Translations under genes and position numbers: made by a program
Part shown: one piece after another, positions 24,688 through 55,017 of the stretch
How the letters are laid out: each line of letters opens with the position of its first letter
How positions within the stretch are numbered: the stretch's first letter is position 1
NCBI GenBank assembly: GCA_046331705.1
Contig: JAXLQJ010000003.1
Coordinates: 214,897-278,896, forward strand
Length of the DNA stretch: 64,000 nt
Source of the DNA: a bacterium
GTDB taxonomy: Bacteria; JADJOY01
Direction: 5' to 3'
Notes under the pieces: generated by a model
Databases searched by the model: none
Told to the model about the DNA's origin: nothing
The model's input: only the letters and a program-made list of their open reading frames with translations

Positions 24688-27165
24688 TCAGGTCGCCATG
24701 TCGCCGAGCTGGCTTCCGCCCGCGAGCGTGGCGAGGCGCGCGCACGCGACCGCGGCCTGCCCCACGGCGAGCCCGGCGTCGGTGGCCGGTATGCGCTCGG
24801 CGACGAGCACGGAAAGCCCGTCCGACTCGAGCCGATGCTTCAACGATTCCAAAAGGATGCGGTGTACGGTCGCGTTCCCCGACAGGGCCACCGTGGTCAC
24901 CCCGGTGAAGCGCGAGAGACGGGATGCCGCGTCGCCCACGCGGCCCGCGAGCGCGTGTAGAAACGCGAGCGCGATGTGACCTGGATCACGCCCCATCAGG
25001 CGCTCGCGAACCACGTCTCGAATGAGCGGCAGCGTGTCGATGATCGCGAGCGGAATCGCTGCGTGCATGGCGTCGTCACTCGTCGGTGACGATGGCGAGT
25101 TGCGCGTTACGGCACCTTCGGCGGCGAAGGCACTCTCCCCCGGGCCCAGTGCCCGCCGCGCCAGTGCGTCGAGCCTGCGCGCGGGTTCGCCGTCGTAGCC
25201 GCTGCTGCGCGCGAGCCCGAGGATCGCGGCCACGGCGTCGAGCAGCCGCGCGCACGAGGTCGTACGCGGTGCCGCGCGCTCGCCGCGCCGCGATTGGGCT
25301 CGCACCGACGCCAGCACCGCCGGCCCCACCCCGTCGACGACACCGAGCGCCTCGGCCAGCGCGCGATCGGGAAACGCCGCCTCGAGCGCCGACACCGCCA
25401 TCCGCCACGGCTCCCGCAGCGACGCCTCGCCTCCCGGCATCGTGAGCGGCGTGAAGCGCGCCACGCGCCGGCAATCGCGCAGATCTCCGAGCAGGATCTC
25501 GCCGCCCCACAGCGTGCCGTCGGGCCCCACCGCCGCGTCGTCGAGAACGATGCCCAGCACGGCATCGCGAACCCCGTGATCGACGAGCACGCCCGCGAGG
25601 TGCGCGTGATGGTGCTGCACGCCGAGATCCGGCACACCGAGCTCGAGCGCCAGCCGCGTGCTCACGCAATCGGGCTCCAGATCGTGCACGACCAGGTCGG
25701 GCCACACGTCCAGGATGCGCGCGTGGTGTGCGACGCTCGCCACCAGCTCGCCCATGGCGTCCCCGTCGTGAAGGTCGCCCACGTGCGGCAAGAGATGTGC
25801 GCGCCCGCCGCCTGCGAGGACCGGGGCGTTGTCTCGATCCCCCCCGATCGCCAGCACGTTCGTCCGTCCCTCCGGCAGCGCGAACGAGGCCGGCGTCGCG
25901 CCACGACCGAGACGGAGCGGCCGCGGCTTGCCAGCCAGGGGAGCGAGCACGGAATCCACCTGGCGGCGCGCCACCGGCCGATCGTGGATCAGGTAGGCAT
26001 CGGCGACGCCGCCTCCGCTCGTGGGCGCAGCGCCGTCGCCGACCCGCAGCGACGGATGCGCGCCCGGCGCCGCGGCCAGCGCGCACACCCGCGCTTCCGC
26101 GAGCAGCAACACCTCGAGCGGCGTGCTGGGCAGCATGACGCCGATCTCGCCCAGCCCCGGTGCCAGCGCAGCCGCGACGCCGCTCGACTCGCGAAGCGGC
26201 AGCACCACCATCGGCCGCGTCGCTCCCTCGAGCGCCGCGCGATGCTCGCCCACGTCCACGATGGCGCGCGCACGCCGCAGATCCGCCACCACGACCGCGA
26301 ACGGCTCGGTCGGCCGGCCGGTCCGCTCGCGCAGCCGCGCGACCGCAGCCGCGCTGGTCGCATCCACCATCCAGCGAACGGCGCCGTAGCTCTCCACCCC
26401 CACGATCGCGCCACGCCGGAGCAAGCCCGCCGCCGCGCGCAACGGGTCGTCGCGACGGCGCACGCGCTGGCCGAGCTCGCGGTGAGCGGGCTCGGGAAGC
26501 ACCAACCGCAGGCTGGGGCCGCATTCGGGGCACGCGACGTTCTGCGCGTGGAAGCGACGGTCCGTCGGGTTCGCGTATTCCGCGCGACAGCGCGCGCACG
26601 GCTCGAATCGGTCCATCGTGGTGCGGCAGCGATCGTAGGGAAGCTCGACGAGGATCGACGAGCGCGGACCGCACGCGGCGCATTGGGTGAACGCGTAGCG
26701 ATGGCGTCGGTCGCCGGGGTCGAGGATCTCGCGCGCGCACGCGGCGCAGATCGGCCGGTCGGGCGGCATCTCGACGGCCCGCTCGCCGAGCACGCTCGCG
26801 GCGATCCGGAAATCGCGCTCGAGGCCGGGCGGTCGGATCGTGGAGCGCGCCGCGTCGAGCCGCGCGCCTTCGGGTGCCTCGCGCGCCAGCGCCGCCGCGA
26901 ACGACTCGGCGCGTTCGATCCGTCCCTGGACCTCGATCTCCGTCCCCGAGCCCCGATGGCGCACGAATCCCGTGAGCCCGTGGGCCGCGGCAAGCCGCTG
27001 CACGAACGCTCGGAAACCCACGCCTTGAACGAGGCCCTCGATCTCGATCCGGCGGCGCGTTCGCAGGCCGACCGCCGGCGTGCGCTCACCGCCAGGCGCA
27101 GGCCGCGCGGCGCCCGAGGCGAAGCGCGGATCAGCAGGCGGCACGTCCGACGCTCGTCGAGTCAC
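24688..27165 (-). CDS. hypF: [NiFe]-hydrogenase maturation carbamoyltransferase HypF
   Basis: Acylphosphatase-like N-terminus (GLVQGVGFRAFV), two Zn-finger pairs (CAACAREI..., CPECGP), YrdC-like and Kae1-like domains. Proposed GTG start at 27165 overlaps the TGA of the upstream hydrogenase gene (GTGA). Confidence 0.85.
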   Translation of the reverse strand: MTRRASDVPPADPRFASGAARPAPGGERTPAVGLRTRRRIEIEGLVQGVGFRAFVQRLAAAHGLTGFVRHRGSGTEIEVQGRIERAESFAAALAREAPEGARLDAARSTIRPPGLERDFRIAASVLGERAVEMPPDRPICAACAREILDPGDRRHRYAFTQCAACGPRSSILVELPYDRCRTTMDRFEPCARCRAEYANPTDRRFHAQNVACPECGPSLRLVLPEPAHRELGQRVRRRDDPLRAAAGLLRRGAIVGVESYGAVRWMVDATSAAAVARLRERTGRPTEPFAVVVADLRRARAIVDVGEHRAALEGATRPMVVLPLRESSGVAAALAPGLGEIGVMLPSTPLEVLLLAEARVCALAAAPGAHPSLRVGDGAAPTSGGGVADAYLIHDRPVARRQVDSVLAPLAGKPRPLRLGRGATPASFALPEGRTNVLAIGGDRDNAPVLAGGGRAHLLPHVGDLHDGDAMGELVASVAHHARILDVWPDLVVHDLEPDCVSTRLALELGVPDLGVQHHHAHLAGVLVDHGVRDAVLGIVLDDAAVGPDGTLWGGEILLGDLRDCRRVARFTPLTMPGGEASLREPWRMAVSALEAAFPDRALAEALGVVDGVGPAVLASVRAQSRRGERAAPRTTSCARLLDAVAAILGLARSSGYDGEPARRLDALARRALGPGESAFAAEGAVTRNSPSSPTSDDAMHAAIPLAIIDTLPLIRDVVRERLMGRDPGHIALAFLHALAGRVGDAASRLSRFTGVTTVALSGNATVHRILLESLKHRLESDGLSVLVAERIPATDAGLAVGQAAVACARLATLAGGSQLGDMAT

Positions 27166-29057
27166 GGCGCCCCACCGGTGGAGTCGATCGCCGTCACCAC
27201 CGCGGTGCACCAGCGCTCGAGCTCGGCGTCGGACGCGTGCGTGGCATCGGCGCCCTCGCCGATCGCGAGCCCCACGAACCACGCCCGACGCGGCATGCGC
27301 CCGAGCGCACCCATCAACGCCACCCCTTCGGCGACACCGAAGCCGTGCGTCGACGTCACGGTCATCGGGTGCGCGCCGTCGCGCACCGCATCGAGAGGCC
27401 AGCGCACCACCGCGCCGCGCTCACCGCCGCGCACGGCGTCGACCACGATCAACGAGTCGCACCCAGCCGCGAGCTCGGCGAGCTCCGGCCCGGGCTCGCC
27501 GGTCGTCACGATCTCGAGCGCCGGCGCGCCGGGCTCGCTAGCCTCGCGCTCACGCAGCCGCTGAGCCACGACGAGACCCAGCCGATCCGCGCCACTCGCA
27601 CTCCCGACGCACAGCACGCGTACCGAGCGGGCCGCGAGCGAGATCGGATCCGCGGCGCGCGAGACCATCCCCGTGGGCGCGCTCGCGTCGTCCCCGTGGG
27701 CCGCGACTCGCTCGCGGTCACCGTCGCCGGCGATCCGCTCCGCGGCGCCCGCGGCAGGAAGTCGATCGATCGTGAGCGTCAAGAAATGCGTCGCGCACGA
27801 GATGCACGGGTCGTAGTTCCGGATCACCACCTCACACGCGTGGGTCGCGTCGGCATGCGCGAGCTCGAGCAGATCGGGCGCGAGATCGCGCAGGTCGCGC
27901 TCGATGGTCGCCTGATTCTGCGAGGTCGGCGGCACGATGCGGACGCTCTTCACGAGCCCCTCGTCGTCGAGCTCGAAGCGATGGAAGAGCGTTCCGCGCG
28001 GCGCCTCGGTCGCGCCGTACCCCACGCCCGCGCGGGGCGCGGCGGCGACGTACGGGACCTCGGGCGGCCGATACGCGGTCACGATGCGCAGCGCCTCCTC
28101 CACCGCGAAGAGCAGCTCGAGGCTCCGCGCGATGGCACCTTGCGCGGGATCGACGCACGGCACCGTGAAGCCGATCGCACGCGCGGCGCTCCGCGCCGTC
28201 TCGCCGAGCTTGTCGAAGGCGAGGCTCACCCGCGCGATCGGACCCACCAGGTAGGCACCGCGGCCGCGGATGCGCGCGTGAAGCGCCGTGGAATGCTCGA
28301 CCTGCACCTCCTCGAAGGTCTGCTCCCAATCGGCGACCGCCACGTCCAGACCGGCCGACGACACGAGCCGCCCTTCGTTGAGCGGGTACTCGCGGGGATG
28401 CCACAACGACACCAGCTCGACGTCGTCCAGCCGGCGGGGCCGGACCTCGAAGCGCACGACCCACGCCAAGAGCTCGAGGGCGCGCTCGCGCGCCCGCTCC
28501 AGCTCGGGCAGCAGCGCGTTCAGCTCGGCGCGGGTCGGCACCCGCGTGAAGCCGCCGGGACGAGCCGAGACCGGATGGATCGCGCGCCCGCCCAGCACCT
28601 CCAGGAGGCGGTTGCCGAGGCGACGCAGCGCCAGCGCCCGCTCCACGTCCGCGGGATGATCGGCGGCCATCTCGACGACGCTCGGATAACCCAATGCGTC
28701 GGGCGCCGCGAGCATCGCCACGTGCAGCGCGTGGCTCTCGATCCACTCGCCGCAGTAGAAGAGCCGGCGCAGCTCGCGCACCTCGGGCGAGATCGCGACG
28801 CCGAGGATCGACTCGAGCGCGTGGAGCGCGCTCATCTGATACGCGACCGGGCAGATGCCGCAGATCCGCGCCACGATGTCCGCCACTTCCAGGTAGCTGC
28901 GCCCCCGCAGCAATCCCTCGAAGAAGCGCGGCGGCTCGTGGATCGTGAGCCGCGCCTCGCGCACCACGCCACCCTCGATGGTCAAGTGGAGCGCGCCCTC
29001 GCCTTCCACGCGCGCGAGGTGCTCGACGCGGATGGTGCGTCGCTCACGCGAGGCCAT
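27162..29057 (-). CDS. [NiFe]-hydrogenase large (alpha) subunit, group 3b-like, fused in-frame to a hydrogenase maturation endopeptidase-like domain
   Basis: N-terminal L1 motif RICGICPVAY. L2 motif DPCISCATH at about residue 416-424. About 40-aa linker, then a HycI/HoxW-like segment (VRVLCVGSASGADRLG..., DSLIVVDAV, STHGFG). One uninterrupted 631-aa ORF. Confidence 0.85.
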   Translation of the reverse strand: MASRERRTIRVEHLARVEGEGALHLTIEGGVVREARLTIHEPPRFFEGLLRGRSYLEVADIVARICGICPVAYQMSALHALESILGVAISPEVRELRRLFYCGEWIESHALHVAMLAAPDALGYPSVVEMAADHPADVERALALRRLGNRLLEVLGGRAIHPVSARPGGFTRVPTRAELNALLPELERARERALELLAWVVRFEVRPRRLDDVELVSLWHPREYPLNEGRLVSSAGLDVAVADWEQTFEEVQVEHSTALHARIRGRGAYLVGPIARVSLAFDKLGETARSAARAIGFTVPCVDPAQGAIARSLELLFAVEEALRIVTAYRPPEVPYVAAAPRAGVGYGATEAPRGTLFHRFELDDEGLVKSVRIVPPTSQNQATIERDLRDLAPDLLELAHADATHACEVVIRNYDPCISCATHFLTLTIDRLPAAGAAERIAGDGDRERVAAHGDDASAPTGMVSRAADPISLAARSVRVLCVGSASGADRLGLVVAQRLREREASEPGAPALEIVTTGEPGPELAELAAGCDSLIVVDAVRGGERGAVVRWPLDAVRDGAHPMTVTSTHGFGVAEGVALMGALGRMPRRAWFVGLAIGEGADATHASDAELERWCTAVVTAIDSTGGAP

Positions 29058-29820
29058 CGGCCACCTCTCGGAACGGACGCAGGGCGCCGGTGATGCCGCG
29101 GAACTGACGCGCCACGTCCGCAGCGGGGATGCCCATCGCGACGTAGCGATTCGCCAGGGTGCGCGGCTCGGCGCCTTCGCTGGGACCGAAGCAGCCGTAG
29201 CAATCGCGACCCATGGATGGGCAGAGCGCGCCGCAACCGGTGCGCGTGACCGGTCCCAGGCACGGCAGGCCGCGCGTCACCACCACGCAGGTGCGGCCGA
29301 GCCGCTTGCAGTCGAGACAGAGATCGTGAGTCGGCAGATGCGGTCGCACGCCGCGCAGCACCTGGCCGAGCACCGTCGCCAGCTCGCCGGCGTCGATCGG
29401 ACAACCCGAGATCTCGAAGTCGACCTTCACGTGCTCGGCGATGGGCGTCGACGTGGAGAGAGCCTGGATCCACTCGGGACGCGGATAGACGAGGCGCTTC
29501 CACGCCTCGACGTCCGCCCAGTTGCGCAACGCCTGAATCCCGCCCGCGGTCGCGCACGCGCCGATCGTCACCAGCGTGCGCGAGGCACGACGGATCTCGA
29601 GGATGCGCTCGACGTCGGCGGCGGTGGTGACGCTGCCCTCGACGAAGCCGAGCTCGTAAGGTCCCTCGAGGACGCGGCTCGACGCCTCGAGGAAGTGGGC
29701 GATCTCGACCTGACGCGCGAGCTCGAGCAGCCGCTCCTCCAGGTTCAGGAACGCCACCTGGCAACCGTCGCAGGACGCGAGCTTGAAGAGCGCGACCCGC
29801 GGGCGCGACGCGGCAGCCAT
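29044..29820 (-). CDS. [NiFe]-hydrogenase small (delta) subunit, group 3b type
   Basis: ALFKLASCDGCQ, IGACATAGG, CLDCKRLGRTCVVVTRGLPCLGPVTRTGCGALCP Cys motifs like sulfhydrogenase HydD. ATG 29820 overlaps the TGA of the gamma subunit (ATGA). Confidence 0.9.
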   Translation of the reverse strand: MAAASRPRVALFKLASCDGCQVAFLNLEERLLELARQVEIAHFLEASSRVLEGPYELGFVEGSVTTAADVERILEIRRASRTLVTIGACATAGGIQALRNWADVEAWKRLVYPRPEWIQALSTSTPIAEHVKVDFEISGCPIDAGELATVLGQVLRGVRPHLPTHDLCLDCKRLGRTCVVVTRGLPCLGPVTRTGCGALCPSMGRDCYGCFGPSEGAEPRTLANRYVAMGIPAADVARQFRGITGALRPFREVADGLA

Positions 29821-30646
29821 CAGAACCCCTCCGCGCCGAACCAGCGCCGCACCTCGGGATACGCGACGATCGGTCCGTCGCGGCACACGAACAGCGAGCC
29901 GATCTGGCAATGCCCGCAATGCCCCAGGCCGCAGCGCATGTTGCGCTCGAGCGAGAGGTAGATGGAGGCCGGATCGAGGCCCGCGAGCCGCAGCTTCTGG
30001 ATCGCGAGCCGCATCATGATCTCGGGCCCGCACATCAGCACCGCCGTGCGGCCGGGCTCGACCTCGATCTCGTCGAAGAGATCGAGCGGCACGCCCACGT
30101 GATACCGCCAGGTCTTGTCCGGCCGATCGACGGTGAGCAGCACCCGCGTGTTGGGCGTGTCCTTCCAGCGATCGAAGCGCTCGCGATAGAGCAAGTCCTG
30201 GGGCGTCTTCACGCCGTGCACGATCGTCAGCCGGCCATAGGACGCGCGCCGGCGGATCATGTACTCGACGGCGCCCCTCACCGGAGCGCAACCCAGGCCG
30301 CCGGTCACCACCACCACGTCGTGACCGACGATGGCGTCGAGCGGCCACGGCTTGCCGTAGGGACCGCGCAGCCCCAGCACGTCGCCCTTCTCCACCGATT
30401 CGAGGGCGCTGGTGATGCGCCCCACGATCCGCACCGTGTGGTCGAAGCCGTCGCGGTCGGCGGGATCGGACGAGATCGAGATCGGCACCTCGCCCGCCCC
30501 GAAGACGTACAGCATGTTGAACTGGCCGGGCTGGAACGCGAAGCGCTCGTGGACGGCGGGGTCCACGAAACGCATGCGGAACGTGAAGATCCCCTCGGCG
30601 TCGGGCCGCTTCTCGACGATTCGCGCCGGGTGGATGCGGTACGGGT

Positions 30647-30650
<4 letters not shown>
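29820..30650 (-). CDS. Hydrogenase gamma subunit (FAD/NAD(P)-binding, [2Fe-2S])
   Basis: Oxidoreductase FAD/NAD-binding fold and C-terminal CGLGHCGHCQ motif like HydG. GTG start at 30650 overlaps the TGA of the beta subunit. Confidence 0.85.
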
Positions 30651-31750
<1,100 letters not shown>

Positions 31751-31793
31751 GGCCAGAGGCGCTGCGACGGACTCGAGCGGCGCCCCCGGTCCT

Positions 31794-31812
31794 GGTGCAA
31801 TCCACACACCGG
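31794..31812 (-). promoter_or_regulatory. Candidate sigma-54 (-24/-12) promoter for hydrogenase operon
   Basis: Minus-strand reading gives cCGGtgtgtggaTTGCAcc: GG-N10-GC spacing with an exact TTGCA -12 element and a weak -24 element. About 45 nt upstream of hydB ATG. Confidence 0.25.
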
Positions 31813-32129
31813 CACGGGAAGACCGCTGCGGCTCGGCCGCCCGCGACGCGGTCGATCGGATTCCATTCGCGCCCATTCCCTCCGGCTGCGCGCTTCCGCC
31901 CAGACGTCGAGGACGCGACCGCAGGATTCGCTTCGGTGCGTGGGCGAATGCCGCTGGCCCGCCCCGCGCCGGCGCGAGCGCCACCGAACGCCAACGGGAC
32001 CGGGATCACGCGCTCGCGGCGCGCGCGGTCGCGCGAAACCGATAGCCGGATTCCCGGACAGGGTCGGCGACAATTCCGCGGGTGGGTGTCGTTCGCGTGA
32101 GCGGATCGGATCCCTTGGACGGCCAAACA

Positions 32130-34534: not shown

Positions 34535-37435
34535 ATGGATCGGATGCTCCCGGCACGGGTGTCTCCTGCGTCGCGCTCGCTCGTCGTGATCTTCATCGCG
34601 CTCGCGGTGCTCTGCTGCACGAGCGCATGCGGCGGCGACAGCGGCGGCTCGAGCGCGGCGGATGCGCGCGTCGCCGACCTCGCGAGCGCCGGCGGCAACG
34701 GTCCGCGCGCCGTCTATCTGCCGGTGAGCAAGAAGGCGCTCAACTTTCCCTTCCCGCACGATGCGTTCACCCTCGTCGATCCATCCACGCCGAGCGGGCG
34801 CCGCCTCAACCTGCCACTCGAGGGCGATACGGCCCTCGAGATCCGCATTCGCGAGCTGCTGAACGCCCAGGATGGTTTCGATCCGCTCACACCGATGCAG
34901 CTCAGCTTCGACGAGCCCGTGGATCTCGCCACGCTGGCGGTGAACCGCGACGCCGACCCGACCAACGACACCGTCTTCGTCCTCAACGTCGATCCACGCA
35001 GCCCGCGCTTCGGCGAGCGCGTCGCGATGGATCTCGGCCAGGGCAATTACCCGATCGAACGACCGCCGCGCAGCTACTTCCCGAACGATCCCCTGAAGGA
35101 CGTGGGGCAATACGAGTTCCCCGCGGACAATCGCGAGGACTTCTACGAGGACCGCAGCGACACGTTCATCATGCGGCCGATCGCGCCGCTCGCGCCGTCG
35201 AGCACCCACGCGGTGATCTTCACCCGCGGCGTGCGCGGCGAGGACGGCGAGCCGCTGCGCTCACCGCACGCCCCGCACGTGGCCCTCGACAGCCAATACG
35301 CCGACCTCGACCGAGCGCTGCCGATCCTCGCTGGACTCGGCGTCGACCCCAGCGACATCGCCTACGCTTACACCTTCACCACCGGCACGCCCACCCACGA
35401 GCTCGAGCAGGTGGAGTCGGGACTGATGCGCGGCGAAGGTCCGCTCGGCTACCTGCGCGACCGCTTTCCGGTGAACCTCACGTTGCTGCCGTTCTCGAAG
35501 CAGCCCGGTGACGATTTCCTCGACTACCAGGGCAACGACCAGCTCCTCGACCCGCCCATCGTGAAGCTGGTGGCGAACATCGCCATCCCGCTCTTCGGCG
35601 GAGGCTCGGGCGATCTCATCCAGGCGGCCATCGACCAGCTCTCCGATCTCACCAGCATCCGCTACTTCGTCCAGGGCACTTATCGAAGCCCGTTCTTCCT
35701 GGGCAACGCCGACGTCGCGTTCCAGCCCGAGGAGATCTCGGGCGAACGCGAGCTGCGCGCCGATCAGACCGACGACGTGCCGTGGTTCCTCGCGGTGCCC
35801 AAGCCCACCGAGCGCAACGGCTTCGCCCAGCCGCCGTACCCGGTGTGCATCTTCCAGCACCCCAACTCCACGAGCCGCCTGATCGCGCTGGCGATCTCGA
35901 GCGTGCTCTCGGATTTCGGCTTCGCCACCATCGGCATCGACGCCGCCGAGAACGGGCCCATCGCGCCTTACGCCACCGATCAGCTGCTCGAGCTCATCAC
36001 CAGCGGTGACACCTCGAGCGTGCCGCTCGCCGGCCTCCTCGGGATCATCCTGGACGGCGTCGGCAACGCCGCCGAGGGCATCGCGTTCGTGGACGTGTTC
36101 GCCGGCACCGGCCGGACACCCGACATCGACTTCAACGGCGACGGACAGATCTCCTCGGGCGAGGAGACGTACACCGGTGACATTCCCACGGTCCGAGACG
36201 TGTTTCGCCAGACGGTGGTGGACTCGTTGCAGCTCACGCGAATCCTGCGCTCGTTCGGCCAGGACCGCAACCACAACGGCAAGCTCGACCCCGACGAGGG
36301 CGACTTCGACGGCGACGGCATCGTCGACGTGGGCGGAGCGAACGCCGAGCTGGTGGCAGGCGCCGAATCGCTCGGCACGTTCATGACGTCGCCCTTCCTG
36401 GCGATCAGCCGCGACGTGGATCGGGCTGCGCTCAACGTGCCCGGCGGTGGCGCCATCGATTTCGTCTCGCGGATCGACTTCTCGGTGGTGAATCAGCTCT
36501 TCGTGCAGCTCTTCGGCCCGGCCGTGGTGGGCCGTCCGTCGAAGTCGGGCGGCGGCATCGATCTCACGCTGATCAACGACACCGGCGACGAGCGCTCGGC
36601 AGCACGCGTCGGCCCCGTCGCGATACCGCCCGGCACGGTGGTGCGGCTCGTCAACCTGGACAAGCCCGACCTGGCGCCGCGCACCGTGGACGCGAACGCC
36701 GACGGCACCTTCATGATCACCTTCCCCGCCGATCCCGGGAACCGCCTCGAGGTCTCGTTCAGCGGCCCCACCGGCGAATCGCTGGGCTTGCCGAGTTACC
36801 GCTTCACCAGCGAGCGGCAGGGGTTCGGCGTGTTGCGCAACACCCCCTCGCTGCGCACCTTCGCCACCATCACCCAAACGCTCTTCGGCTCCGGCGACGG
36901 CGCCAACTACGCCACCCATTGGACCGGCGATCCGCTTCCCGGCCGCAATCCCAAGCAGGCGCTCATCCAGCTCGATCCCGCGGACTTCACGGTGCCCACC
37001 TCGACCGGGCTCACGCTGGCGCGGGCGGCCAACCTGATCAGCCCCGAGCGCATGGCGGACCTCGTCTCCAAGAACGTGGCCGTGGGCACCATCCCCGAGC
37101 TGGGGATCCACATGAAGATCCCCGAGCTGCCGCTCGCCGCCGGCAACGAGTCCGAATATCCAGGCCTCGACTACGACCTCACGCGCACCTTCCCGTTCGA
37201 GAACCGCGTTCCTGGCTCGGGGCTGGCGCTCCATCTGGCCGACAACCACGAGTACCTCTTCGCCGCGAGCCAGGGCGAGAGCGGTCCCGTGGGCGCCTGG
37301 CTCACGATCGCCGCCCAGGCGCAGATCGGCATCTTCCTGGAGCGCGGCGAGGTGGTGATCCCCTTCCGCGATCTCATCGACGAGCTGCGCGCCAAGGGAC
37401 GCGACATCCCGCGAATCCCGGGCGTCGACCCCTGA
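34535..37435 (+). CDS. Large secreted protein of unknown function (966 aa)
   Basis: Signal peptide MDRMLPARVSPASRSLVVIFIALAVLCCTSAC. Several DxDGDG / DPDEGDFDGDG calcium-binding-like motifs. No catalytic family recognised. Confidence 0.7.
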   Translation: MDRMLPARVSPASRSLVVIFIALAVLCCTSACGGDSGGSSAADARVADLASAGGNGPRAVYLPVSKKALNFPFPHDAFTLVDPSTPSGRRLNLPLEGDTALEIRIRELLNAQDGFDPLTPMQLSFDEPVDLATLAVNRDADPTNDTVFVLNVDPRSPRFGERVAMDLGQGNYPIERPPRSYFPNDPLKDVGQYEFPADNREDFYEDRSDTFIMRPIAPLAPSSTHAVIFTRGVRGEDGEPLRSPHAPHVALDSQYADLDRALPILAGLGVDPSDIAYAYTFTTGTPTHELEQVESGLMRGEGPLGYLRDRFPVNLTLLPFSKQPGDDFLDYQGNDQLLDPPIVKLVANIAIPLFGGGSGDLIQAAIDQLSDLTSIRYFVQGTYRSPFFLGNADVAFQPEEISGERELRADQTDDVPWFLAVPKPTERNGFAQPPYPVCIFQHPNSTSRLIALAISSVLSDFGFATIGIDAAENGPIAPYATDQLLELITSGDTSSVPLAGLLGIILDGVGNAAEGIAFVDVFAGTGRTPDIDFNGDGQISSGEETYTGDIPTVRDVFRQTVVDSLQLTRILRSFGQDRNHNGKLDPDEGDFDGDGIVDVGGANAELVAGAESLGTFMTSPFLAISRDVDRAALNVPGGGAIDFVSRIDFSVVNQLFVQLFGPAVVGRPSKSGGGIDLTLINDTGDERSAARVGPVAIPPGTVVRLVNLDKPDLAPRTVDANADGTFMITFPADPGNRLEVSFSGPTGESLGLPSYRFTSERQGFGVLRNTPSLRTFATITQTLFGSGDGANYATHWTGDPLPGRNPKQALIQLDPADFTVPTSTGLTLARAANLISPERMADLVSKNVAVGTIPELGIHMKIPELPLAAGNESEYPGLDYDLTRTFPFENRVPGSGLALHLADNHEYLFAASQGESGPVGAWLTIAAQAQIGIFLERGEVVIPFRDLIDELRAKGRDIPRIPGVDP

Positions 37436-37531: not shown

Positions 37532-38353
37532 TCACGAACGGATGAAGTCGGCGATCACGCGATAGATCCAACGTCCGCGGCCGTATTCGTAGTCGTGTCC
37601 GCCGTGCGGCACCGCCACGAAGCGCGCGGCGGGGATCGCTCGTGCCACGCGCTCGCCCATCTCGAAGGGGACCACCGGATCGGCGTCGCCGTGGATCACG
37701 AGCGTCGGGACAGCGATCCGGCTCGTCTTCGCCAGCGTGTCGAAGCGATCCCGCAACAACAGCCGCACGGGCAGAAACGGCACCCTCCGCGCCGCGACGT
37801 CCGGAACCGAGGTGAACGGCGCCTGCAGGACGAGCCGCGACGCGAAGCCGCGGGCGGCCATCTCCGCGGCCACACCCGTGCCCAGCGAGAACCCCCATAG
37901 CGCCGTGCGCTCACGCGCGATGCCCTCGCCGGAAAGCCACCGAATCACCGCCGCCGCGTCGGCATAGAGCCCGGGCTCGCTCGGGCGCGCACCCGCCGAG
38001 GCCCCATACCCCCGATACTCCACCAGCACCGCGCCGCAGCCGAGGCTTCGAAGCTCGGCACCGATCGCTTGGTTCCAGCCGACGACCTCGCCGTTGCCGT
38101 GAAACTGCACCACGACCGGCGCCTCGGCATCGGGTGGGTCGAACACGATGGCATGGACCGCAACCCCGTCGTCCGCGACCAGCTCCACACGCCGCGCACC
38201 CACGGCCAACGGGCCGGCGTCCGTCGTCGGTGCGGGAAAGACGAGGCGCCGCGCCCCGACGAACGCGGACACGAGCATCAAGCCGTAGGCGATCGCGCCC
38301 CACCGCAGCACCCGGATGGCGAGGCGCGCGGCGCCGGAACGTTCGTCGGCCAT
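37532..38353 (-). CDS. Alpha/beta hydrolase
   Basis: GFSLG nucleophile elbow (GxSxG). TM-like N-terminus. HGDAD and PHGGHDY motifs. Confidence 0.8.
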   Translation of the reverse strand: MADERSGAARLAIRVLRWGAIAYGLMLVSAFVGARRLVFPAPTTDAGPLAVGARRVELVADDGVAVHAIVFDPPDAEAPVVVQFHGNGEVVGWNQAIGAELRSLGCGAVLVEYRGYGASAGARPSEPGLYADAAAVIRWLSGEGIARERTALWGFSLGTGVAAEMAARGFASRLVLQAPFTSVPDVAARRVPFLPVRLLLRDRFDTLAKTSRIAVPTLVIHGDADPVVPFEMGERVARAIPAARFVAVPHGGHDYEYGRGRWIYRVIADFIRS

Positions 38354-38728
38354 GGGGAGCTCGCGATTCAGACCGGTGCGAACGGATCATCGCGGGCACG
38401 GCGTCAGCCGAGGCAGCGACCGCACGCGCTTCCGAGCACTCGAGACCACCGTCCACCGGCCGAGTATCGGGTCGAGCCCAGGAAGCGTGGGCCGCGCGAC
38501 AACACGCACGACCCAGCGCGCCGCGGAATCGTACCCCGCCGGCGCTTGCTCGACGAGACCGCGCTCCCCGGCGCTCACCCGCGCCGGCGACGCCGTGCGC
38601 GCGGCGCGCGGCGTCGCGCACGGCGGTGGCCCGCCGCGATCTCGATCCGTTCCGCAGGCATTCGGGGCAGTCCGCGTTAGGATCGAGCGACCCCGGCGCG
38701 TGACTCGCTGCACCCATGGTGCTCGCCC

Positions 38729-39352
38729 ATGAAGACGTTGCATCGACCCGATCTCTTCTGTTGGTCCACGTTCGACGAGAGCCGAAACGTCGACTTCCAC
38801 GGCTGGGCCTGGACCCGCGCGGACGGCAACGTCCTCATCGATCCCTTGCCGCTGAGCGCCCACGACGAGGCGCACCTCCGCGAGCTGGGCGGAGCCGCAT
38901 GGGTGGTGGTCACGAACTCCGATCACACGCGCGCGGCGCGCGAGCTCGCGGCACGCTTCGGCGCGGCCCTCGCGGGACCCGCAGCCGAGCGTGACTCGTT
39001 CCCGTTCCCGTGCGATCGCTGGCTCGCCGATGGCGACGAGCTGGTCCCCGGGCTCACCGCGCTCGCGCTCGATGGCTCGAAGACGCCAGGCGAGCTGGCG
39101 CTGCTCATCGAGGACACCACGCTCGTGACCGGCGACCTCGTGCGCGCCCATCGCGGCGGACGGCTGATGCTGCTGCCGGATGCGAAGCTCGCCGACAAGG
39201 CGCGCGCCGTGGCCTCGGTTCGCGCGCTGGTCGCCGATCATCCCGCCATCGATGCGGTGCTGGTCGGCGACGGATGGCCGGTGTTTCGGGACGGGCAGCA
39301 ACGACTTCGCGAGCTGGTGGCGTCGCTGCCACCGCTCGAGGCGCGCTCGTGA
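38729..39352 (+). CDS. MBL-fold metallo-hydrolase
   Basis: VVVTNSDHTRAAREL (HxHxDH-like degenerate motif) and an MBL profile. The stop TGA overlaps the GTG of the next gene. Confidence 0.7.
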   Translation: MKTLHRPDLFCWSTFDESRNVDFHGWAWTRADGNVLIDPLPLSAHDEAHLRELGGAAWVVVTNSDHTRAARELAARFGAALAGPAAERDSFPFPCDRWLADGDELVPGLTALALDGSKTPGELALLIEDTTLVTGDLVRAHRGGRLMLLPDAKLADKARAVASVRALVADHPAIDAVLVGDGWPVFRDGQQRLRELVASLPPLEARS

Positions 39353-40131
39353 AGTGGGGGGATCTCAAGGACGCCTTGGGCAAGCTGGCGGGCGGAGCGC
39401 GGACGCCCGTCACGAACGCGGCGCCTGCCGCCGGCACCGTCGCAAACCTCGACGCGCTGCGCGAGAGACTGCGCGCCAGCGACGAAGGCACCCGGCTCGC
39501 CGCCATCGACGCGCTCGAACGCTTGGCGGCGCTGACGCCGGAGCAACATTGGCCGGTGATCGACCTGCTGGTCGGCTTCGTGCGCGATCGGTGCCCGTAT
39601 CTGGCCGCGGACGCGAGCGCGGGTCCGGCGCGCGACGTCCAGCGCGTGATCCAGGTCATCGGCCAGCGCCGACATGTGGAGTCCGAGCGGCTCCCGCTCG
39701 GACTCTTCCAGGTGGATCTGCGCAACGCCGACTTCAGCGAAGCCCGCCTCGACCGCGCGGATTTCTCGCGTGCTCACCTGGAATCGGCGGACTTCACGGG
39801 CGCCAAGCTCGCCGGCGCCAACTTCCAGGAGAGCTTCCTCGACGACGCCCACTTCATGAACGCGACGCTCACCGGCGCGAATTTCCTGGCCGCGGACTTG
39901 CGTCGGGCGAACTTCACGGGCGCCACGCTGCGCACGGTGCATCTCGAGGAGGCAAGCCTCGAGGAGGCGGTGCTGGTGGGCGTGCGCCTCGACGGCGCGG
40001 TGCTCACGGGCGCCAACCTCGCCGGCGCCCACCTCGAGGGAGCCGATCTGGCCGGCGCCGTGGGACTCACGAGAGAGCAGCTCACCGGCACCACCACCGA
40101 CGCCCGCACGGTGCTGCCTCATCTGGACTGA
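39349..40131 (+). CDS. Pentapeptide-repeat protein
   Basis: About 25 consecutive A(D/N)LxxA(N/D)FxxA pentapeptide repeats (e.g. ADFSEARLDRADFSRAHLESADFTGAKLAGANF...). GTG start in GTGA overlap. Confidence 0.8.
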   Translation: MKWGDLKDALGKLAGGARTPVTNAAPAAGTVANLDALRERLRASDEGTRLAAIDALERLAALTPEQHWPVIDLLVGFVRDRCPYLAADASAGPARDVQRVIQVIGQRRHVESERLPLGLFQVDLRNADFSEARLDRADFSRAHLESADFTGAKLAGANFQESFLDDAHFMNATLTGANFLAADLRRANFTGATLRTVHLEEASLEEAVLVGVRLDGAVLTGANLAGAHLEGADLAGAVGLTREQLTGTTTDARTVLPHLD

Positions 40132-41084
40132 TGCCTTCGGCCGCCCTACCCGCCGAGATCCTGTGGATCGAGCCGCTCTCCCCGAGCTTTCCCCACTCGT
40201 GCAACGCGTACGCGGTCTGGGAGGGCGACGGCACCTGGACGTGGATCGATCCCGGCGCCGCGGGTGACGAGAACCTGGCGCGCACCGAGACCGAGCTCGC
40301 GCGCCTCGGGCTGCCGCTGGCGAAGCTCGGCCGCATCCTCGTCACCCATCCGCACGTGGACCATCTCTCCGCCGCGGGCGCGCTCGCGGCCCGCGGGGTG
40401 CGGGTGCCCGTGCACTGCCACCCCGACGCCGTCGCGTGCGCCCGCGATCTCGCCACCCTGATCGCGAGCTTCGACTTCGACGTGGCGCTCGCGCGGCTGC
40501 CGGACGAACGAGAGCGGACCGAAGCCGTCCTCGAGCGGATGCGCACGATGATCTTCGCGATGCACGCGCCGTTCGTGGCCACCGATCCGCTGCCCACGCT
40601 TCACGACGGCGCGGTGATCGCCACCGGTCCCTTCGAGTGGAGGTGCCTCCACACGCCGGGCCACGCCCCGGGCCACGTCGCCTTCCACGAGCACCGCCAG
40701 GGATTGCTGGTGAGCGGCGACCTGGTCGGCCCGACACTCGCGTGGCACAGCCCGAGCTCGGGCGGCGCCGCCGGCTACCTCGCGAGCTTGGAGCGCTTGC
40801 AAGCGCTCGATCTTCGGGTATTGCTCCCGTCGCACGGCGAGCCCAATCTCGAGCCCACGTCGCACATCACCAAGATGCTGAAGCGCCTCGTCGACCGCGA
40901 AAGCCGCCTCCTCGACGTGCTCGCGCGCGGCACCCGTCGCTACGCCTCGCTCTACGACGAGGTGAACGCCGACCCCGATCACATCCGGCTCTTTCCCCTC
41001 GCCCCCATGCTCGAAGGGCATCTCGAGCGGCTGGCGGCCCTCGGCGAGATCGTCGAGGACGACGGCGTCTTCTCGCGCACATGA
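40131..41084 (+). CDS. MBL-fold metallo-hydrolase
   Basis: THPHVDHLSAAG (HxHxDH motif) and HTPGHAPGH. ATG overlaps the preceding TGA (TGATG). Confidence 0.85.
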   Translation: MPSAALPAEILWIEPLSPSFPHSCNAYAVWEGDGTWTWIDPGAAGDENLARTETELARLGLPLAKLGRILVTHPHVDHLSAAGALAARGVRVPVHCHPDAVACARDLATLIASFDFDVALARLPDERERTEAVLERMRTMIFAMHAPFVATDPLPTLHDGAVIATGPFEWRCLHTPGHAPGHVAFHEHRQGLLVSGDLVGPTLAWHSPSSGGAAGYLASLERLQALDLRVLLPSHGEPNLEPTSHITKMLKRLVDRESRLLDVLARGTRRYASLYDEVNADPDHIRLFPLAPMLEGHLERLAALGEIVEDDGVFSRT

Positions 41085-41974
41085 GCCTCACCCCCCGCGA
41101 ACGCGTGCAGCTCGTGGTGTGGCGCCGCGGCATCGAGCTCGGCTCCGTGGCGCGCACCGCGGCGCGCGGGCTCGAGATGCGCGGGCTCGGCGTCACCACC
41201 CACGCGTACGGACCCCATCGCCTCGAGCAACTCGATCGAATCGCCGCCCCCAGCGCAGCCGGCGACGCACCGATCCTCGTCTACGTCCACGGCGGCGGTT
41301 GGGTGTGCGGCGTGCGCAGCCTCTATCGCTGCGACCTGGCGCCCTTCGCCCGCGCCGGGCACGTGGTGTTCAACCTGGACTATCCGCTGGCGCCCGAAGC
41401 GCCGTTTCCCCGCGCGCTCGAAAGCGTGATCCGCGCCCTCGCGTGGATTCGCGAGCGCGAGCCGGGCGCGGAGCGGGTGGCCCTCGCCGGCGACTCGGCG
41501 GGCGGCAACCTGGTGACGATGGCGGCGGCCGTGCTCACCAATCCGGCGCTCTTCGAGCTCGTCGATCCAGCGCTCGCCGATCTCACGCTGCCTGAGATCG
41601 ACAAGGTCGTGTCGATCTACGGCGTGATGGACCGCTTCACCTGGCTCGAGCACCGCTTTCCAGCGGCGCGGCTCTTCATGACCTGCTACGGCGGCGCCGC
41701 CGCGTACGAGCGTGAGGTCCGGCCCGACAACTGCCTCACCCCGCTCGACCTCACCTTCCAGCACCTGCCGCCGATCTTCGTGGTCGCCGCGGGCAGAGAT
41801 CCGCTCTGCGTGTCGAGCCAGATCTTCCACCAGGCGCTCGCGAGCCGCGGGTTTCCGGTTCGCTACCAGCTCTATCCCGACGAGGCCCACGGCTTCCTCA
41901 ACATGCCGTGGCGCAAGGCGAGCCATCGCCTCAAGCGCGACATGCTCGCTTTCCTCGCGTCCGCTCCAGCCTAG
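41081..41974 (+). CDS. Alpha/beta hydrolase (esterase/lipase, HSL-like)
   Basis: HGGGW oxyanion motif, GDSAGG nucleophile elbow, catalytic His near the C-terminus. ATGA overlap with the upstream gene. Confidence 0.85.
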   Translation: MSLTPRERVQLVVWRRGIELGSVARTAARGLEMRGLGVTTHAYGPHRLEQLDRIAAPSAAGDAPILVYVHGGGWVCGVRSLYRCDLAPFARAGHVVFNLDYPLAPEAPFPRALESVIRALAWIREREPGAERVALAGDSAGGNLVTMAAAVLTNPALFELVDPALADLTLPEIDKVVSIYGVMDRFTWLEHRFPAARLFMTCYGGAAAYEREVRPDNCLTPLDLTFQHLPPIFVVAAGRDPLCVSSQIFHQALASRGFPVRYQLYPDEAHGFLNMPWRKASHRLKRDMLAFLASAPA

Positions 41975-42151
41975 GGCAAGCGTTCTCGCTGCCGCGCGAA
42001 GGGATGGCCGCGGCGAGGCGACGGCGACGCCGCGGCGCAGCGACCGTTCACGAGCGCTTGCGATCGTGAGATGGAGAAACAACCGGGGGCTCGTTTCCGA
42101 GCCCCCGGTCCGTGATTCTCCGTCGGCTGTGCCGAGGATCGTTCGCGCGGG

Positions 42152-49935: not shown

Positions 49936-50700
49936 ATGCTCGATCCCCGGTTCCGCCTCTTCGCCGAGGAGCTCGCCGAGCTCGCCGGCGACGTCATCCG
50001 CCGCTACTACCGATCGAGCGTCCAGGTACACGAGAAATCCGACGCGACTCCCGTGACGCAGGCCGACCGCGAGGCCGAAGCGGTCATGCGCGATCGGATC
50101 GTGCAGTGCTTTCCCGACCACGGCGTGCTCGGCGAGGAGCACGGCGAGGTCAACCCGGGCGCCGACTATCGCTGGGTCCTCGATCCGGTCGACGGCACCA
50201 AGAGCTTCGTCCTCGGCATCCCGATGTTCGTGACGCTGATCGCGCTGGAATACCGTGGGCAACCGATCCTGGGCGTCATCGACCAACCCGTGCTGCGCGA
50301 ACGGGTGATCGGCGACGGCCGCGAGACGCGGCTCAACGGGCGTCCGGTCCGCGCCCGGCCTTGCGGCGCGCTCGAGAACGCGTATCTCCTCGCGACCGAT
50401 CCGCTGCTCGTCGAGAAGCACTTCGGCACCCGCGGCTTCGACCGTCTCACCCACGCCGTCAAATGCTTCCGCGCCATCGGCGACGGCTACTCCTACGGGC
50501 TGCTCGCTGCAGGCTTCGCCGACGTCGTGCTGGATCCGATCATGAACCCGTGGGACGTGGCGGCGCTGATTCCCGTGGTGCGGGGTGCCGGCGCGGTGAT
50601 CAGCGACTGGCACGGCGACGATCCGGTGGGCAAGGCAAGCACCGTCGCGGCGAGCGCCGCGATCCATCCGCGCGTGATCGAGATCCTGAACCGCCCCTGA
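49936..50700 (+). CDS. Inositol monophosphatase family protein (HisN/SuhB-like)
   Basis: IMPase motifs GEE...WVLDPVDGT and WDVAA. Start at MLDPRF; the listed ORF from 48724 is an antisense extension. Confidence 0.85.
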   Translation: MLDPRFRLFAEELAELAGDVIRRYYRSSVQVHEKSDATPVTQADREAEAVMRDRIVQCFPDHGVLGEEHGEVNPGADYRWVLDPVDGTKSFVLGIPMFVTLIALEYRGQPILGVIDQPVLRERVIGDGRETRLNGRPVRARPCGALENAYLLATDPLLVEKHFGTRGFDRLTHAVKCFRAIGDGYSYGLLAAGFADVVLDPIMNPWDVAALIPVVRGAGAVISDWHGDDPVGKASTVAASAAIHPRVIEILNRP

Positions 50701-50719: not shown

Positions 50720-51490
50720 TCAACCTTCCGCGAATCGCGCCGCGACGCTGCGCACCAGCTCGGGAAGGAGCTCGACGCAGTCGCCTTCCAGACGCACCGT
50801 CGCGACGTCGTCGTGCGCCGTCGGACCGCGGTTCACGATCACGTAGGGCGCGCCGCGCCGACGCGCGGCCAACGGCACCAGCGCCGCCGGCTGCACCTCC
50901 AGCGTCGAGCCGACCGCCAGCACCGCGTCGGCTCGCTCGGCGGCGGCGAACGCGCGCTGGGTCTCGCGCTCGGGCATGGATTGCCCGAACGAGATGGTGG
51001 CGCTCTTCACCAAGCCGCCGCAGCCACACCGCGGCGCCCGGCGCGTGCGCCGGAACTCCTCCATCCACGGCCCGGGCTCGCTGCGCGCGCCGCAGCTCAG
51101 GCATTCGATCCAGCGATTGGTGCCGTGGATCTCCACGACGCGATCGCCGCGGCTTCCCGCATCCTGGTGCAGGCCGTCGATGTTCTGCGTCACCAGCAGC
51201 TCCACCCGTCCCTGCCGCTCGAGCTCGACGATCGCGTGATGCGCGGCGTTCGGGCGCGCATCGCGGAACTGGTCCCAGGACTCGAGCTTGAAATCCCAAT
51301 GCTCGGCGCGCGCCTCCTCCGAGGCGAGGAAGTCCTGGAAGTAGACCGGCTTGCGTCGTTTCCACACGCCGTTCGGCCCGCGGAAATCCGCGATGCCGGA
51401 ACCGGTCGAGATTCCCGCGCCGGTGAACACCAAGAGGCGGCGCGCCCGCGCCAGCACGTCCGCTGCACGCTCGAGATCCGAGTCGCTCAT
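50720..51490 (-). CDS. NAD-dependent protein deacylase (SIR2 family)
   Basis: GAGIST..GIADFRG, TQNIDGLH, Zn-ribbon CLSCG...CGCGG. Start trimmed to MSDSDLER. Confidence 0.85.
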   Translation of the reverse strand: MSDSDLERAADVLARARRLLVFTGAGISTGSGIADFRGPNGVWKRRKPVYFQDFLASEEARAEHWDFKLESWDQFRDARPNAAHHAIVELERQGRVELLVTQNIDGLHQDAGSRGDRVVEIHGTNRWIECLSCGARSEPGPWMEEFRRTRRAPRCGCGGLVKSATISFGQSMPERETQRAFAAAERADAVLAVGSTLEVQPAALVPLAARRRGAPYVIVNRGPTAHDDVATVRLEGDCVELLPELVRSVAARFAEG

Positions 51491-54304: not shown

Positions 54305-55002
54305 TCAGGACGCCTGCGGTCCCGACACCAGGCGGCCGTCGGAGAGAACGTAGCGAGTGGAAGTGCGCTCGACCACACGCGGATCGTGGGTGGCGACGAG
54401 GAACGTGGTGCCGTGGCGCTGGTTGAGGGCCGCCATGGTGTCGAGCAACGCCAAGCCGGTGGTGTGGTCGAGATTCGCCGTGGGCTCGTCGCCGAGGACG
54501 ATCGGCGGCTCCTTCACCAGCGCCCGCGCCACCGCGACGCGCTGCTGCTCGCCTCCCGAGAGCTCCGTCGGTCGCGCCGCCGCTCGATGCGCGACGCCCA
54601 GCTCGTCGAGCCAGCGCCGCGCGCGCTCGGCGCGCTCCCGCGACGCGATCCCGAGGAGCGCCAGCGGCAGCTCGACGTTCTCCTGCGCGGTCAGCACGTC
54701 GATGAGGTTGTAGCTCTGGAAGACGAAGCCGATGGAACGCTTGCGGAACAGGGCGCGCGCCGCTGCGCCGAGCGCCGAGACCTCCGCGCTTCCGACCCGC
54801 ACCGAGCCGGCGTCCGGCCGATCGAGCCCGCCGATCAGGTTGAGCAACGTCGTCTTGCCCGAGCCCGAGGGCCCGACCAGCGCCGCGAACGAGCCTGGCT
54901 CCACCGCGAAGCTCACGTCGTCGACCACGCGTGCGCCGCCGTAGCTCCGCACCACGCCGCGAACCTCGATTCTCGCGCTCCGTCCGCCGTCGCTCACGTG
55001 CA
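54305..55002 (-). CDS. ABC transporter ATP-binding protein (LolD/MacB-type)
   Basis: Walker A GPSGSGKTT, signature LSGGEQQRVAVARAL, Walker B IVLGDEPTANLD, H-loop ATHD. Confidence 0.9.
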
Positions 55003-55017
55003 TCCTCCTTCGCGTCG

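Follow-up and report, generated by a model that had tools for sequence, protein, structure and literature searches.

We analyzed a 64-kb stretch of bacterial DNA (64,000 nucleotides (nt) of contig JAXLQJ010000003.1, positions 214,897–278,896), here called the window, which has a G+C content of about 70% and carries a run of four genes on the plus strand at 38729–41974. The closest named relatives of the source bacterium are metagenome-assembled genomes labelled Deltaproteobacteria or Myxococcota. Gene 1 (38729–39352) encodes a 207-residue protein with a metallo-beta-lactamase (MBL) fold, which scored 307.4 bits against the Pfam profile Lactamase_B_5 (PF14597; cut-off 28.4) and spans profile positions 1–199 of 199. 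Gene 2 (39349–40131), with a GTG start at 39349, encodes a 260-residue pentapeptide-repeat protein (Pentapeptide, PF00805, 101 bits against a cut-off of 20.2). It is followed by gene 3 (40131–41084, ATG start at 40131), encoding a 317-residue MBL-fold metallo-hydrolase (Lactamase_B, PF00753, 89.7 bits against 22.7), and by gene 4 (41081–41974, ATG start at 41081), encoding a 297-residue family IV carboxylesterase of the hormone-sensitive lipase type (Abhydrolase_3, PF07859, 115 bits against 25).

Each gene overlaps the next. The stop codon of gene 1 and the start codon of gene 2 share the sequence GTGA, a 4-nt overlap at 39349–39352; the TGA stop of gene 2 (40129–40131) and the ATG of gene 3 share a single nucleotide in TGATG; and the stop of gene 3, at 41084, overlaps the start of gene 4 by 4 nt in ATGA. 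A previous reading of this DNA, made from the sequence alone and referred to as the sequence-only reading, had placed all four open reading frames (ORFs) and the junctions at 39349, 40131 and 41081 correctly, as borne out by the Pfam matches and by several observations on the start sites. Identical public proteins of 260 residues (P0121) and 317 residues (P0241) back the starts of genes 2 and 3, respectively. All orthologues of gene 2 open with a conserved MKW(G/S)(D/E)LKGA N-terminus, and two related loci, L005 and L084, use ATG at that position in place of the GTG found in the window. A composition-only gene caller written for this analysis chose the same four starts.

Upstream of gene 1 is a divergent intergenic region of 375 nt (38354–38728), which from the ORF map and its geometry is presumed to hold the promoter; a promoter scan detected no sigma-70-like consensus in it and Rfam no element. 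Inside the four genes, consensus scans found neither promoter-like sites nor plus-strand terminator-like sites, and Rfam and tRNA scans of the whole window returned nothing. Between gene 4 and a convergent S8 protease gene there is a G+C-rich hairpin (42070–42124) with a 12-bp core (42082–42093 pairing with 42098–42109), a candidate bidirectional terminator on account of its folding energy: the minimum free energy was −41.2 kcal/mol on the plus strand and −39.6 on the minus strand, with z-scores of −6.4 and −6.9 relative to shuffled sequences. The T-rich tail stands out more on the minus strand; the T-tract is weak, which is why the consensus terminator scan missed the hairpin. Hydrophobic N-termini, present in the flanking 966-residue protein and S8 protease, are lacking in all four proteins, which look cytoplasmic. 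Judged from this geometry, the four genes could plausibly be transcribed as one unit.

To compare gene neighborhoods, we collected 80 species-level loci with gene 1 as the anchor and considered all neighbors within 7 kb. Homologues of genes 2–4 were found in only five of them (L001–L005; the L004 contig ends inside gene 2), where the flanking 966-residue gene, S8 protease and Fur genes are conserved too. The other 75 loci, from cyanobacteria, Myxococcota, Gamma- and Alphaproteobacteria, carry a gene 1 that is 60–73% identical and no homologue of gene 2, 3 or 4, and clustering of their neighbors revealed no partner family in common beyond genus-level synteny. Within the PF14597 family, which includes Protein Data Bank (PDB) entry 2P97, a pentapeptide gene is thus found downstream only in the clade of the window, and the gene stands alone in the 75 other genomes. 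A metagenome scan with gene 3 as the anchor (54 loci) gave only three matches above 35% identity: L087, from the same species, and L088 (58%) and L089 (65%), both of which lack genes 1, 2 and 4. Gene 3 homologues at 56–58% identity in other organisms lie beside SRPBCC cyclase-like, GerE or unrelated genes, and four of the broader pentapeptide homologues (P0130, P0131, P0137 and P0165) have no MBL or esterase neighbors.

The spacing of the genes differs among the relatives. In the window, the gene 1–gene 2, gene 2–gene 3 and gene 3–gene 4 junctions measure −4, −1 and −4 nt, where negative values are overlaps. The corresponding values are −4, +9 and −4 in both L001 and L002, and −4, +14 and roughly +36 to +57 in L003; in L004, the single junction covered is −4. 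In L005, a gene 1–gene 2 junction of −4 is followed by a 4.35-kb gap with three inserted genes between genes 2 and 3 and by roughly +16 to +37 between genes 3 and 4. L084, whose contig ends inside gene 3, has −4 and then 4.49 kb with the same insertion as L005, while L087, which does not cover the gene 1–gene 2 junction, has −1 and −4. Finally, L143 has +18 and +38, lacks gene 4, and continues after +25 with an Inositol_P gene. The 4-nt overlap between genes 1 and 2 was consequently kept in the window, L001–L005 and L084, over gene 2 identities down to 65%, and it was kept despite variation in the junction sequence itself (TCGTGAAGT versus CCGATGAAGT). The −4 overlap between genes 3 and 4 occurs only in the window, L001, L002 and L087. 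The insertion between genes 2 and 3 (L005, 2633–7502; L084, 2018–6739) belongs to one sub-lineage and consists of a minus-strand HTH_3 regulator, a pyridine-nucleotide-disulfide oxidoreductase with a cyclic nucleotide (cNMP)-binding domain, and an unknown protein of ≈770 residues. In L149 (3481–4980), the gene after gene 1 (77% identical) overlaps it by 1 nt and encodes, in the place of the pentapeptide protein, a 499-residue Ala-rich protein with a single hydrophobic segment and no Pfam match.

L143, a more distant relative, has genes 1–3 in order, at 78%, 49% and 56% identity to the window. Since its immediate flanks differ, we considered whether it independently supports a conserved unit of three genes and rejected this, as its wider gene order is collinear with that of the window: by tblastn, the two share the 966-residue gene, genes 1–3, the Inositol_P gene (window 49951–50691), a SIR2 gene (50753–51475) and a 610-residue gene (62836–63999). 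The trio is therefore inherited gene order. L143 lacks gene 4, the S8 protease, Fur and Feo genes and DUF362. Correspondingly, the window has an extra block of ≈8.8 kb (41081 to ≈49900; L143 4155–4180) between gene 3 and the Inositol_P gene, which starts with gene 4 and goes on with the S8 protease, which has MopE-like repeats, Fur, two FeoA genes, FeoB and DUF362. This block is either an insertion in the window or a deletion in L143.

The sequence-only reading had offered the four genes as a quartet whose co-conservation could be checked by synteny. That search recovered the quartet only in the nearest relatives, in broadly collinear DNA: it is limited to the species of the window and L001–L003, is interrupted in L005, was not found beyond closely related collinear genomes, and can be split by indels at the gene 2–gene 3 junction and after gene 3. 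The comparison of gene orders shows the quartet to be an apparently lineage-specific composite rather than a dedicated module, in which only the adjacency of genes 1 and 2 seems stable.

Gene 1 matched PDB entry 2P97, a "hypothetical protein", over its full length (E = 3.8e-85) with roughly 70% identity by eye, and it has the TNSDH, GSKTPGE, TGD and GDGW motifs of that protein. Its homologues form more than 3100 clusters, mostly 60–75% identical. An identity of 60–75% between the bacterium of the window, Nostoc, Scytonema, Myxococcota, and Gamma- and Alphaproteobacteria makes Lactamase_B_5 unusually conserved, and in an alignment of 79 family members, 54 positions were at least 97% conserved. 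The canonical di-zinc HxHxDH motif is absent from gene 1, which has TNSDH at residues 62–66 instead. Because T62, N63, S64 and H66 are all at least 97% conserved across the 79 members, this is a trait of the family and not a sign of decay. H5, D22, D38, H45, D46, H49, E87, K118, E122, D136 and D181 are further conserved residues. We found no functional literature on 2P97, PF14597 or Ava_3068.

The protein encoded by gene 2 was modelled with AF2 from a 55-sequence alignment, with a mean predicted local distance difference test (pLDDT) score of 90.1. After a disordered stretch (residues 1–26), the model has a four-helix, HEAT-like N-terminal domain (residues 27–105, 39427–39663; helices 27–41, 46–62, 64–81 and 95–105) that caps a beta-helix and has no Pfam hit. 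The pentapeptide region (residues 116–240, 39694–40068), delimited by the AF2 strands and the repeat register, consists of 25 uninterrupted pentapeptides, or about 6.25 coils, modelled at a pLDDT of 97–98 with one strand residue per five positions. The fold is predicted to be a beta-helix, right-handed and quadrilateral, and Foldseek returned pentapeptide-repeat structures only (probability 1.00); the best structural matches were designed solenoids and cyanobacterial proteins, not Qnr. In the monomer model, the C-terminal helix has four residues (242–245). The repeat domain is acidic, with a net charge of −9 and an isoelectric point of 4.65. Its repeats and its PF00805 score make gene 2 a member of the pentapeptide-repeat protein superfamily.

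True orthologues of gene 2 form only nine clusters (59–100% identity, 257–262 residues). The next tier, at no more than 45% identity, comprises proteins of 300–450 residues with a membrane segment, an N-domain motif RLGGIYALERIA...DH...VLTAFVRE, the repeats and a GLTxEQL cap. With the N-domain alone (residues 25–116) as the query, 182 clusters were found, mostly pentapeptide proteins; ten hits were scanned, and six were pentapeptide proteins (257–467 residues) and two were genuine multi-repeat HEAT_2 proteins, with matches in multiple stretches, which is why we call the domain HEAT-like. A single-sequence AF2 model of the N-domain reached a pLDDT of only 57.5 and was discarded as too poor for a fold search, so that the HEAT-like call rests on the sequence hits. 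The domain recurs before pentapeptide repeats in hundreds of clusters, usually after a membrane segment (P0130–P0240 and P0326–P0473), and this family appears to be large and undescribed. Among its members are widespread, uncharacterized proteins annotated as YjbI, built from a membrane anchor, a HEAT-like domain, pentapeptide repeats and a GLTxEQL C-terminal cap, with which gene 2 shares the N-domain motif, the repeats and a "GLTREQL...T.LP" cap at 30–44% identity over 73–87% of the length. The proteins encoded by gene 2 and its orthologues are smaller and have no hydrophobic segment at the N-terminus, so that they are probably soluble. In the wider family, MBL and esterase neighbors are absent and the contexts are unrelated. 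The one paper from the literature search to link an operon and an MBL with a pentapeptide protein deals with a secreted YjbI in Caulobacter and is unrelated.

Gene 3 has a complete set of di-metal motifs: HPHVDH at 73–78, TPGH at 175–178, D197 (GDL) and H235 (SHG). Its best PDB matches are the uncharacterized MBL-fold proteins 6AO1 and 2ZO4. It shares with 6AO1, 5U8O, 2ZO4 and the LACTB2-like branch the MBL fold, the full HxHxDH/H/D/H set and a similar length, but the E-values to the three structures are only 1e-13 to 1e-15, and the search output gave no assigned physiological substrate for them. Gene 4 has HGGG at 70, GDSAG at 137, DPL at 240 and HGF at 270, and its top PDB match is the esterase Est8 (4YPV). 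With Est8, EST2 and Aes it has in common the Abhydrolase_3 domain, an oxyanion motif (HGGG), a nucleophile elbow (GDSAG) and, from the triad, the Asp in DPL and the His in HGF; unlike them, it fits no named NCBIfam subfamily, staying under every specific cut-off (LipP1, 118 versus 350; GESAG, 87 versus 430; acetyl esterase, 79 versus 389). By its motifs and scores, gene 4 is a generic family IV esterase. Both enzymes look catalytically competent.

On the other side of the 375-nt region is a divergent minus-strand gene (37532–38353) for a 273-residue alpha/beta hydrolase (Pfam Hydrolase_4/Abhydrolase_1), a variable neighbor that we place outside the unit. It is present only in L002 and L081 among the relatives and was not found in L003–L005 or L143, where the position upstream of gene 1 is taken by the 966-residue gene (L003–L005) or a pilin-like gene (L143). 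The 966-residue gene (34535–37435), encoding a putative lipoprotein, is the most persistent upstream neighbor of genes 1 and 2, being seen in L003, L004, L005, L084, L143 and L141. The protein has no Pfam domain and matches VolA/Pla-1 phospholipase only weakly. In L004, this gene stops ≈16–20 nt before gene 1, and the transcription unit may therefore begin there in relatives; in the window and L002, the divergent hydrolase gene is wedged between the two.

On balance, we favor the view that this is a real and probably co-transcribed cluster of four genes for cytoplasmic proteins, a lineage-specific composite with genes 1 and 2 as its core. Transcription would start in the divergent region upstream of gene 1 and end at the hairpin at 42070–42124, and ribosomes that finish one gene could begin again at the start codon of the next, which overlaps the stop. 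The recurring core consists of the Lactamase_B_5 gene followed by the gene for the HEAT-like domain and pentapeptide beta-helix. Gene 3, with its intact di-metal site, is a looser third member, and gene 4, with its intact Ser-Asp-His triad, lies at the edge of the 8.8-kb block that is missing from a related genome. The enzymes may hydrolyze small ester, thioester or lactone-type metabolites, and the gene 2 protein may regulate the Lactamase_B_5 protein or serve as its protein-binding partner, rather than being a DNA mimic that protects topoisomerases; the proposed substrates and the partner role are of low certainty. The best-supported positive statement is that genes 1 and 2 appear to be a stable, overlap-coupled pair in this clade.

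Several observations weigh against this view. Nothing in the sequences points to any substrate, and the case for co-transcription is one of geometry only. In the sister lineage with gene 1 at 77% identity, the downstream gene encodes the 499-residue Ala-rich protein, and another sister lineage (gene 1 76% identical) has no same-strand downstream partner. A contig of error-prone, 1x long reads (L141) has a gene 2 homologue (224–966; 52% identical, split by a frameshift and convergent with a fragmented homologue of the 966-residue gene) whose 223 nt of upstream sequence contain no gene 1, which is possibly an exception to the gene 1–gene 2 pairing or possibly an assembly artefact. The link between genes 1 and 2 could also be simple inheritance within one clade.

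Pure genome compaction would account for the same arrangement if all four genes, genes 1 and 2 included, were functionally unrelated and the overlaps a by-product of start/stop drift in a gene-dense, high-G+C genome. By a rough gene call of the window, 11 of its 27 co-directional junctions permit a −4 or −1 overlapped start, as do 8 of 24, or one third, when the three in the operon are left out. A minus-strand nickel–iron (NiFe) hydrogenase cluster at 24688–31984, with genes for HypF, the large subunit, the small subunit and an iron–sulfur protein, has junctions of −14, −1 and −4, so that overlap runs are normal in this genome; those of the feoA-feoA-feoB genes are −4 and −4. GTGA alone is a weak signal, because third codon positions are ≈90% G+C and the sequence arises easily. 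In most prokaryote groups, about 15% of gene pairs overlap (PMC6728339). We conclude that the overlaps in the operon exceed chance only modestly and that overlaps alone say little about function. Compaction is further favored by the fact that all loci with the arrangement come from one collinear clade, while gene 1 has another downstream partner or none in the sister lineages and stands alone in the 75 other genomes. It does not readily explain why the overlap of genes 1 and 2 persisted while the junction sequence and start codon changed (GTG to ATG) and gene 2 diverged to 65% identity, with every other junction around the cluster hit by indels in the clade, and conserved short overlaps are statistically enriched for subunits of complexes (PMC10666635). 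Overall, we regard compaction as a serious but unlikely explanation.

The same considerations apply to the translational coupling proposed in the sequence-only reading. The overlaps of −4, −1 and −4 stand at each junction, and such overlaps give tight termination–reinitiation coupling that is lost at spacers of ≈20 nt (PMC10666635); by analogy with the systems studied there and in PMC6728339, coupling across the three junctions is plausible. The stoichiometric co-expression that had been read from the overlaps was not supported, given that overlaps are common in the genome and only that of genes 1 and 2 is conserved. Since overlaps are enriched among complex subunits (PMC10666635), the gene 1–gene 2 pair is compatible with a protein–protein partnership. 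It is a long shot that the pair encodes a physical complex in which the soluble pentapeptide beta-helix regulates, inhibits or targets the deeply conserved, non-canonical MBL-fold enzyme.

A further alternative comes from the sequence-only reading, which took gene 2 for a DNA mimic like Qnr, MfpA and AlbG and the cluster for a resistance, self-immunity or detoxification module: gene 2 would shield gyrase or topoisomerase, or give self-immunity, with the two MBL-fold proteins and the esterase serving to inactivate a toxin that resembles a lactone, an ester or a quinolone. MfpA is partnered with the GTPase MfpB. Gene 2 does have in common with MfpA, Qnr, AlbG, McbG, CysO and PcyT a quadrilateral beta-helix of A(D/N)LXX-type repeats, an acidic surface and a cytoplasmic location. 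The fold was predicted with high confidence, QnrB1, MfpA and AlbG were among the many pentapeptide-repeat hits from Foldseek, and the acidic repeat domain fits a DNA mimic but does not discriminate. Nevertheless, gene 2 scored 6–10 fold below the family cut-offs in NCBIfam (Qnr, 38 versus 240; MfpA, 36.5 versus 360; SmQnr, 39 versus 460), and the individual QnrA/B/C/D/E/S/VC families gave 28–36 against cut-offs of 425–500. MfpA, EfsQnr, AlbG and PENT have 8 coils and an 11–12-residue C-terminal dimerization helix (PMC8145042), which in the Qnr/MfpA/AlbG class would mediate a head-to-head dimer. The gene 2 model has about 6.25 coils versus 8 or more in this class, no Qnr loops, only the four-residue helix at the C-terminus of the monomer, which speaks against such a dimerization helix, and an additional N-domain of ≈80 residues, the HEAT-like domain common to a large family in unrelated contexts, and its closest structural matches lie outside Qnr. 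We conclude that gene 2 does not look Qnr/MfpA/AlbG-like: the beta-helix expected by the sequence-only reading is predicted, but not at the size of a DNA mimic.

The genomic context did not support a resistance module either. In myxobacteria, pentapeptide-repeat proteins serve in self-resistance and sit next to biosynthetic clusters and exporters (PMC5982219), and genes 3 and 4 look catalytically competent. Next to gene 2, in contrast, there is neither a biosynthetic cluster nor an exporter, and a GTPase partner of the mfpB type is missing. A scan of the proteins in the 64-kb window found no polyketide synthase or nonribosomal peptide synthetase, microcin, topoisomerase, transposase or mobile-element gene. 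The only exporter-like genes, an ATP-binding cassette (ABC) ATPase and FtsX permeases (54305–56918), lie ≈12 kb from the operon, and PADLOC gave no hits to the four proteins or the upstream hydrolase. Besides this ABC/FtsX transporter, the window contains a pyruvate:ferredoxin oxidoreductase (PFOR), redox enzymes, two-component and sigma-54 regulators, the NiFe hydrogenase with HypF, Feo and radical S-adenosylmethionine (SAM) genes; the large subunit of the hydrogenase is apparently fused to a HycI-like maturation protease domain. The enzymes also stayed far below family cut-offs: gene 3 gave 34.5 versus 240 for B3 beta-lactamase and 26 versus 360 for the AidB lactonase, and gene 4 gave 75.5 versus 500 for chloramphenicol hydrolase. 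With the quartet not kept outside the nearest relatives and the beta-helix shorter than in the DNA mimics, the outcomes that the sequence-only reading had named as refuting it have largely come about. Most of what was found speaks against the module, and we consider it highly improbable.

Degradation of a lactone or quorum signal, in which gene 3 would be a lactonase of the MBL type and gene 4 an esterase for the ring-opened or acylated product, fares slightly worse and is very doubtful. Both active sites are intact, the two genes are adjacent in five relatives, and gene 3 weakly resembles the AidB lactonase and the PqsE thioesterase, at scores below threshold. Judged by score, however, gene 3 falls outside B3 beta-lactamase, glyoxalase II (GloB, 34.5 versus 200.8), AidB and PqsE, and gene 4 gave only 15.9 versus 400 for UilS. 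Furthermore, the gene 3 homologues at 56–58% identity have no esterase neighbor, all four proteins look cytoplasmic, and the window proteins that were scanned include neither a signal synthase nor a receptor.

LACTB2 is an endoribonuclease, and distant homologues of gene 3 have PF17778, a winged-helix domain of the LACTB2 type, or are fused to NUDIX, some being named "endoribonuclease LACTB2" by the Joint Genome Institute (JGI). Least probable of all is an RNA- or nucleotide-directed function on this basis, in which gene 3 belongs to the LACTB2-like branch and the acidic, rod-like pentapeptide beta-helix mimics nucleic acid to regulate it, since the names are automatic annotations, gene 3 itself has no PF17778 hit at E ≤ 0.01, and gene 2–gene 3 is the least conserved junction.

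The lineage-specific composite with a gene 1–gene 2 core is thus an ordinary composite operon. It is made of known domain families in one uncultured lineage, shows no sign of resistance, defense or natural-product biology, and matters little as it stands. It does carry two cautions: a pentapeptide-repeat gene beside hydrolases does not imply a Qnr-like function, and start/stop overlaps are routine in high-G+C genomes. If genes 1 and 2 did encode a complex, this would give a first function both to a class of pentapeptide proteins with hundreds of members and to the uncharacterized PF14597 family. Both the large HEAT-like N-domain pentapeptide family and the widely conserved PF14597, with its non-canonical active-site motif, may merit a specialist's time.

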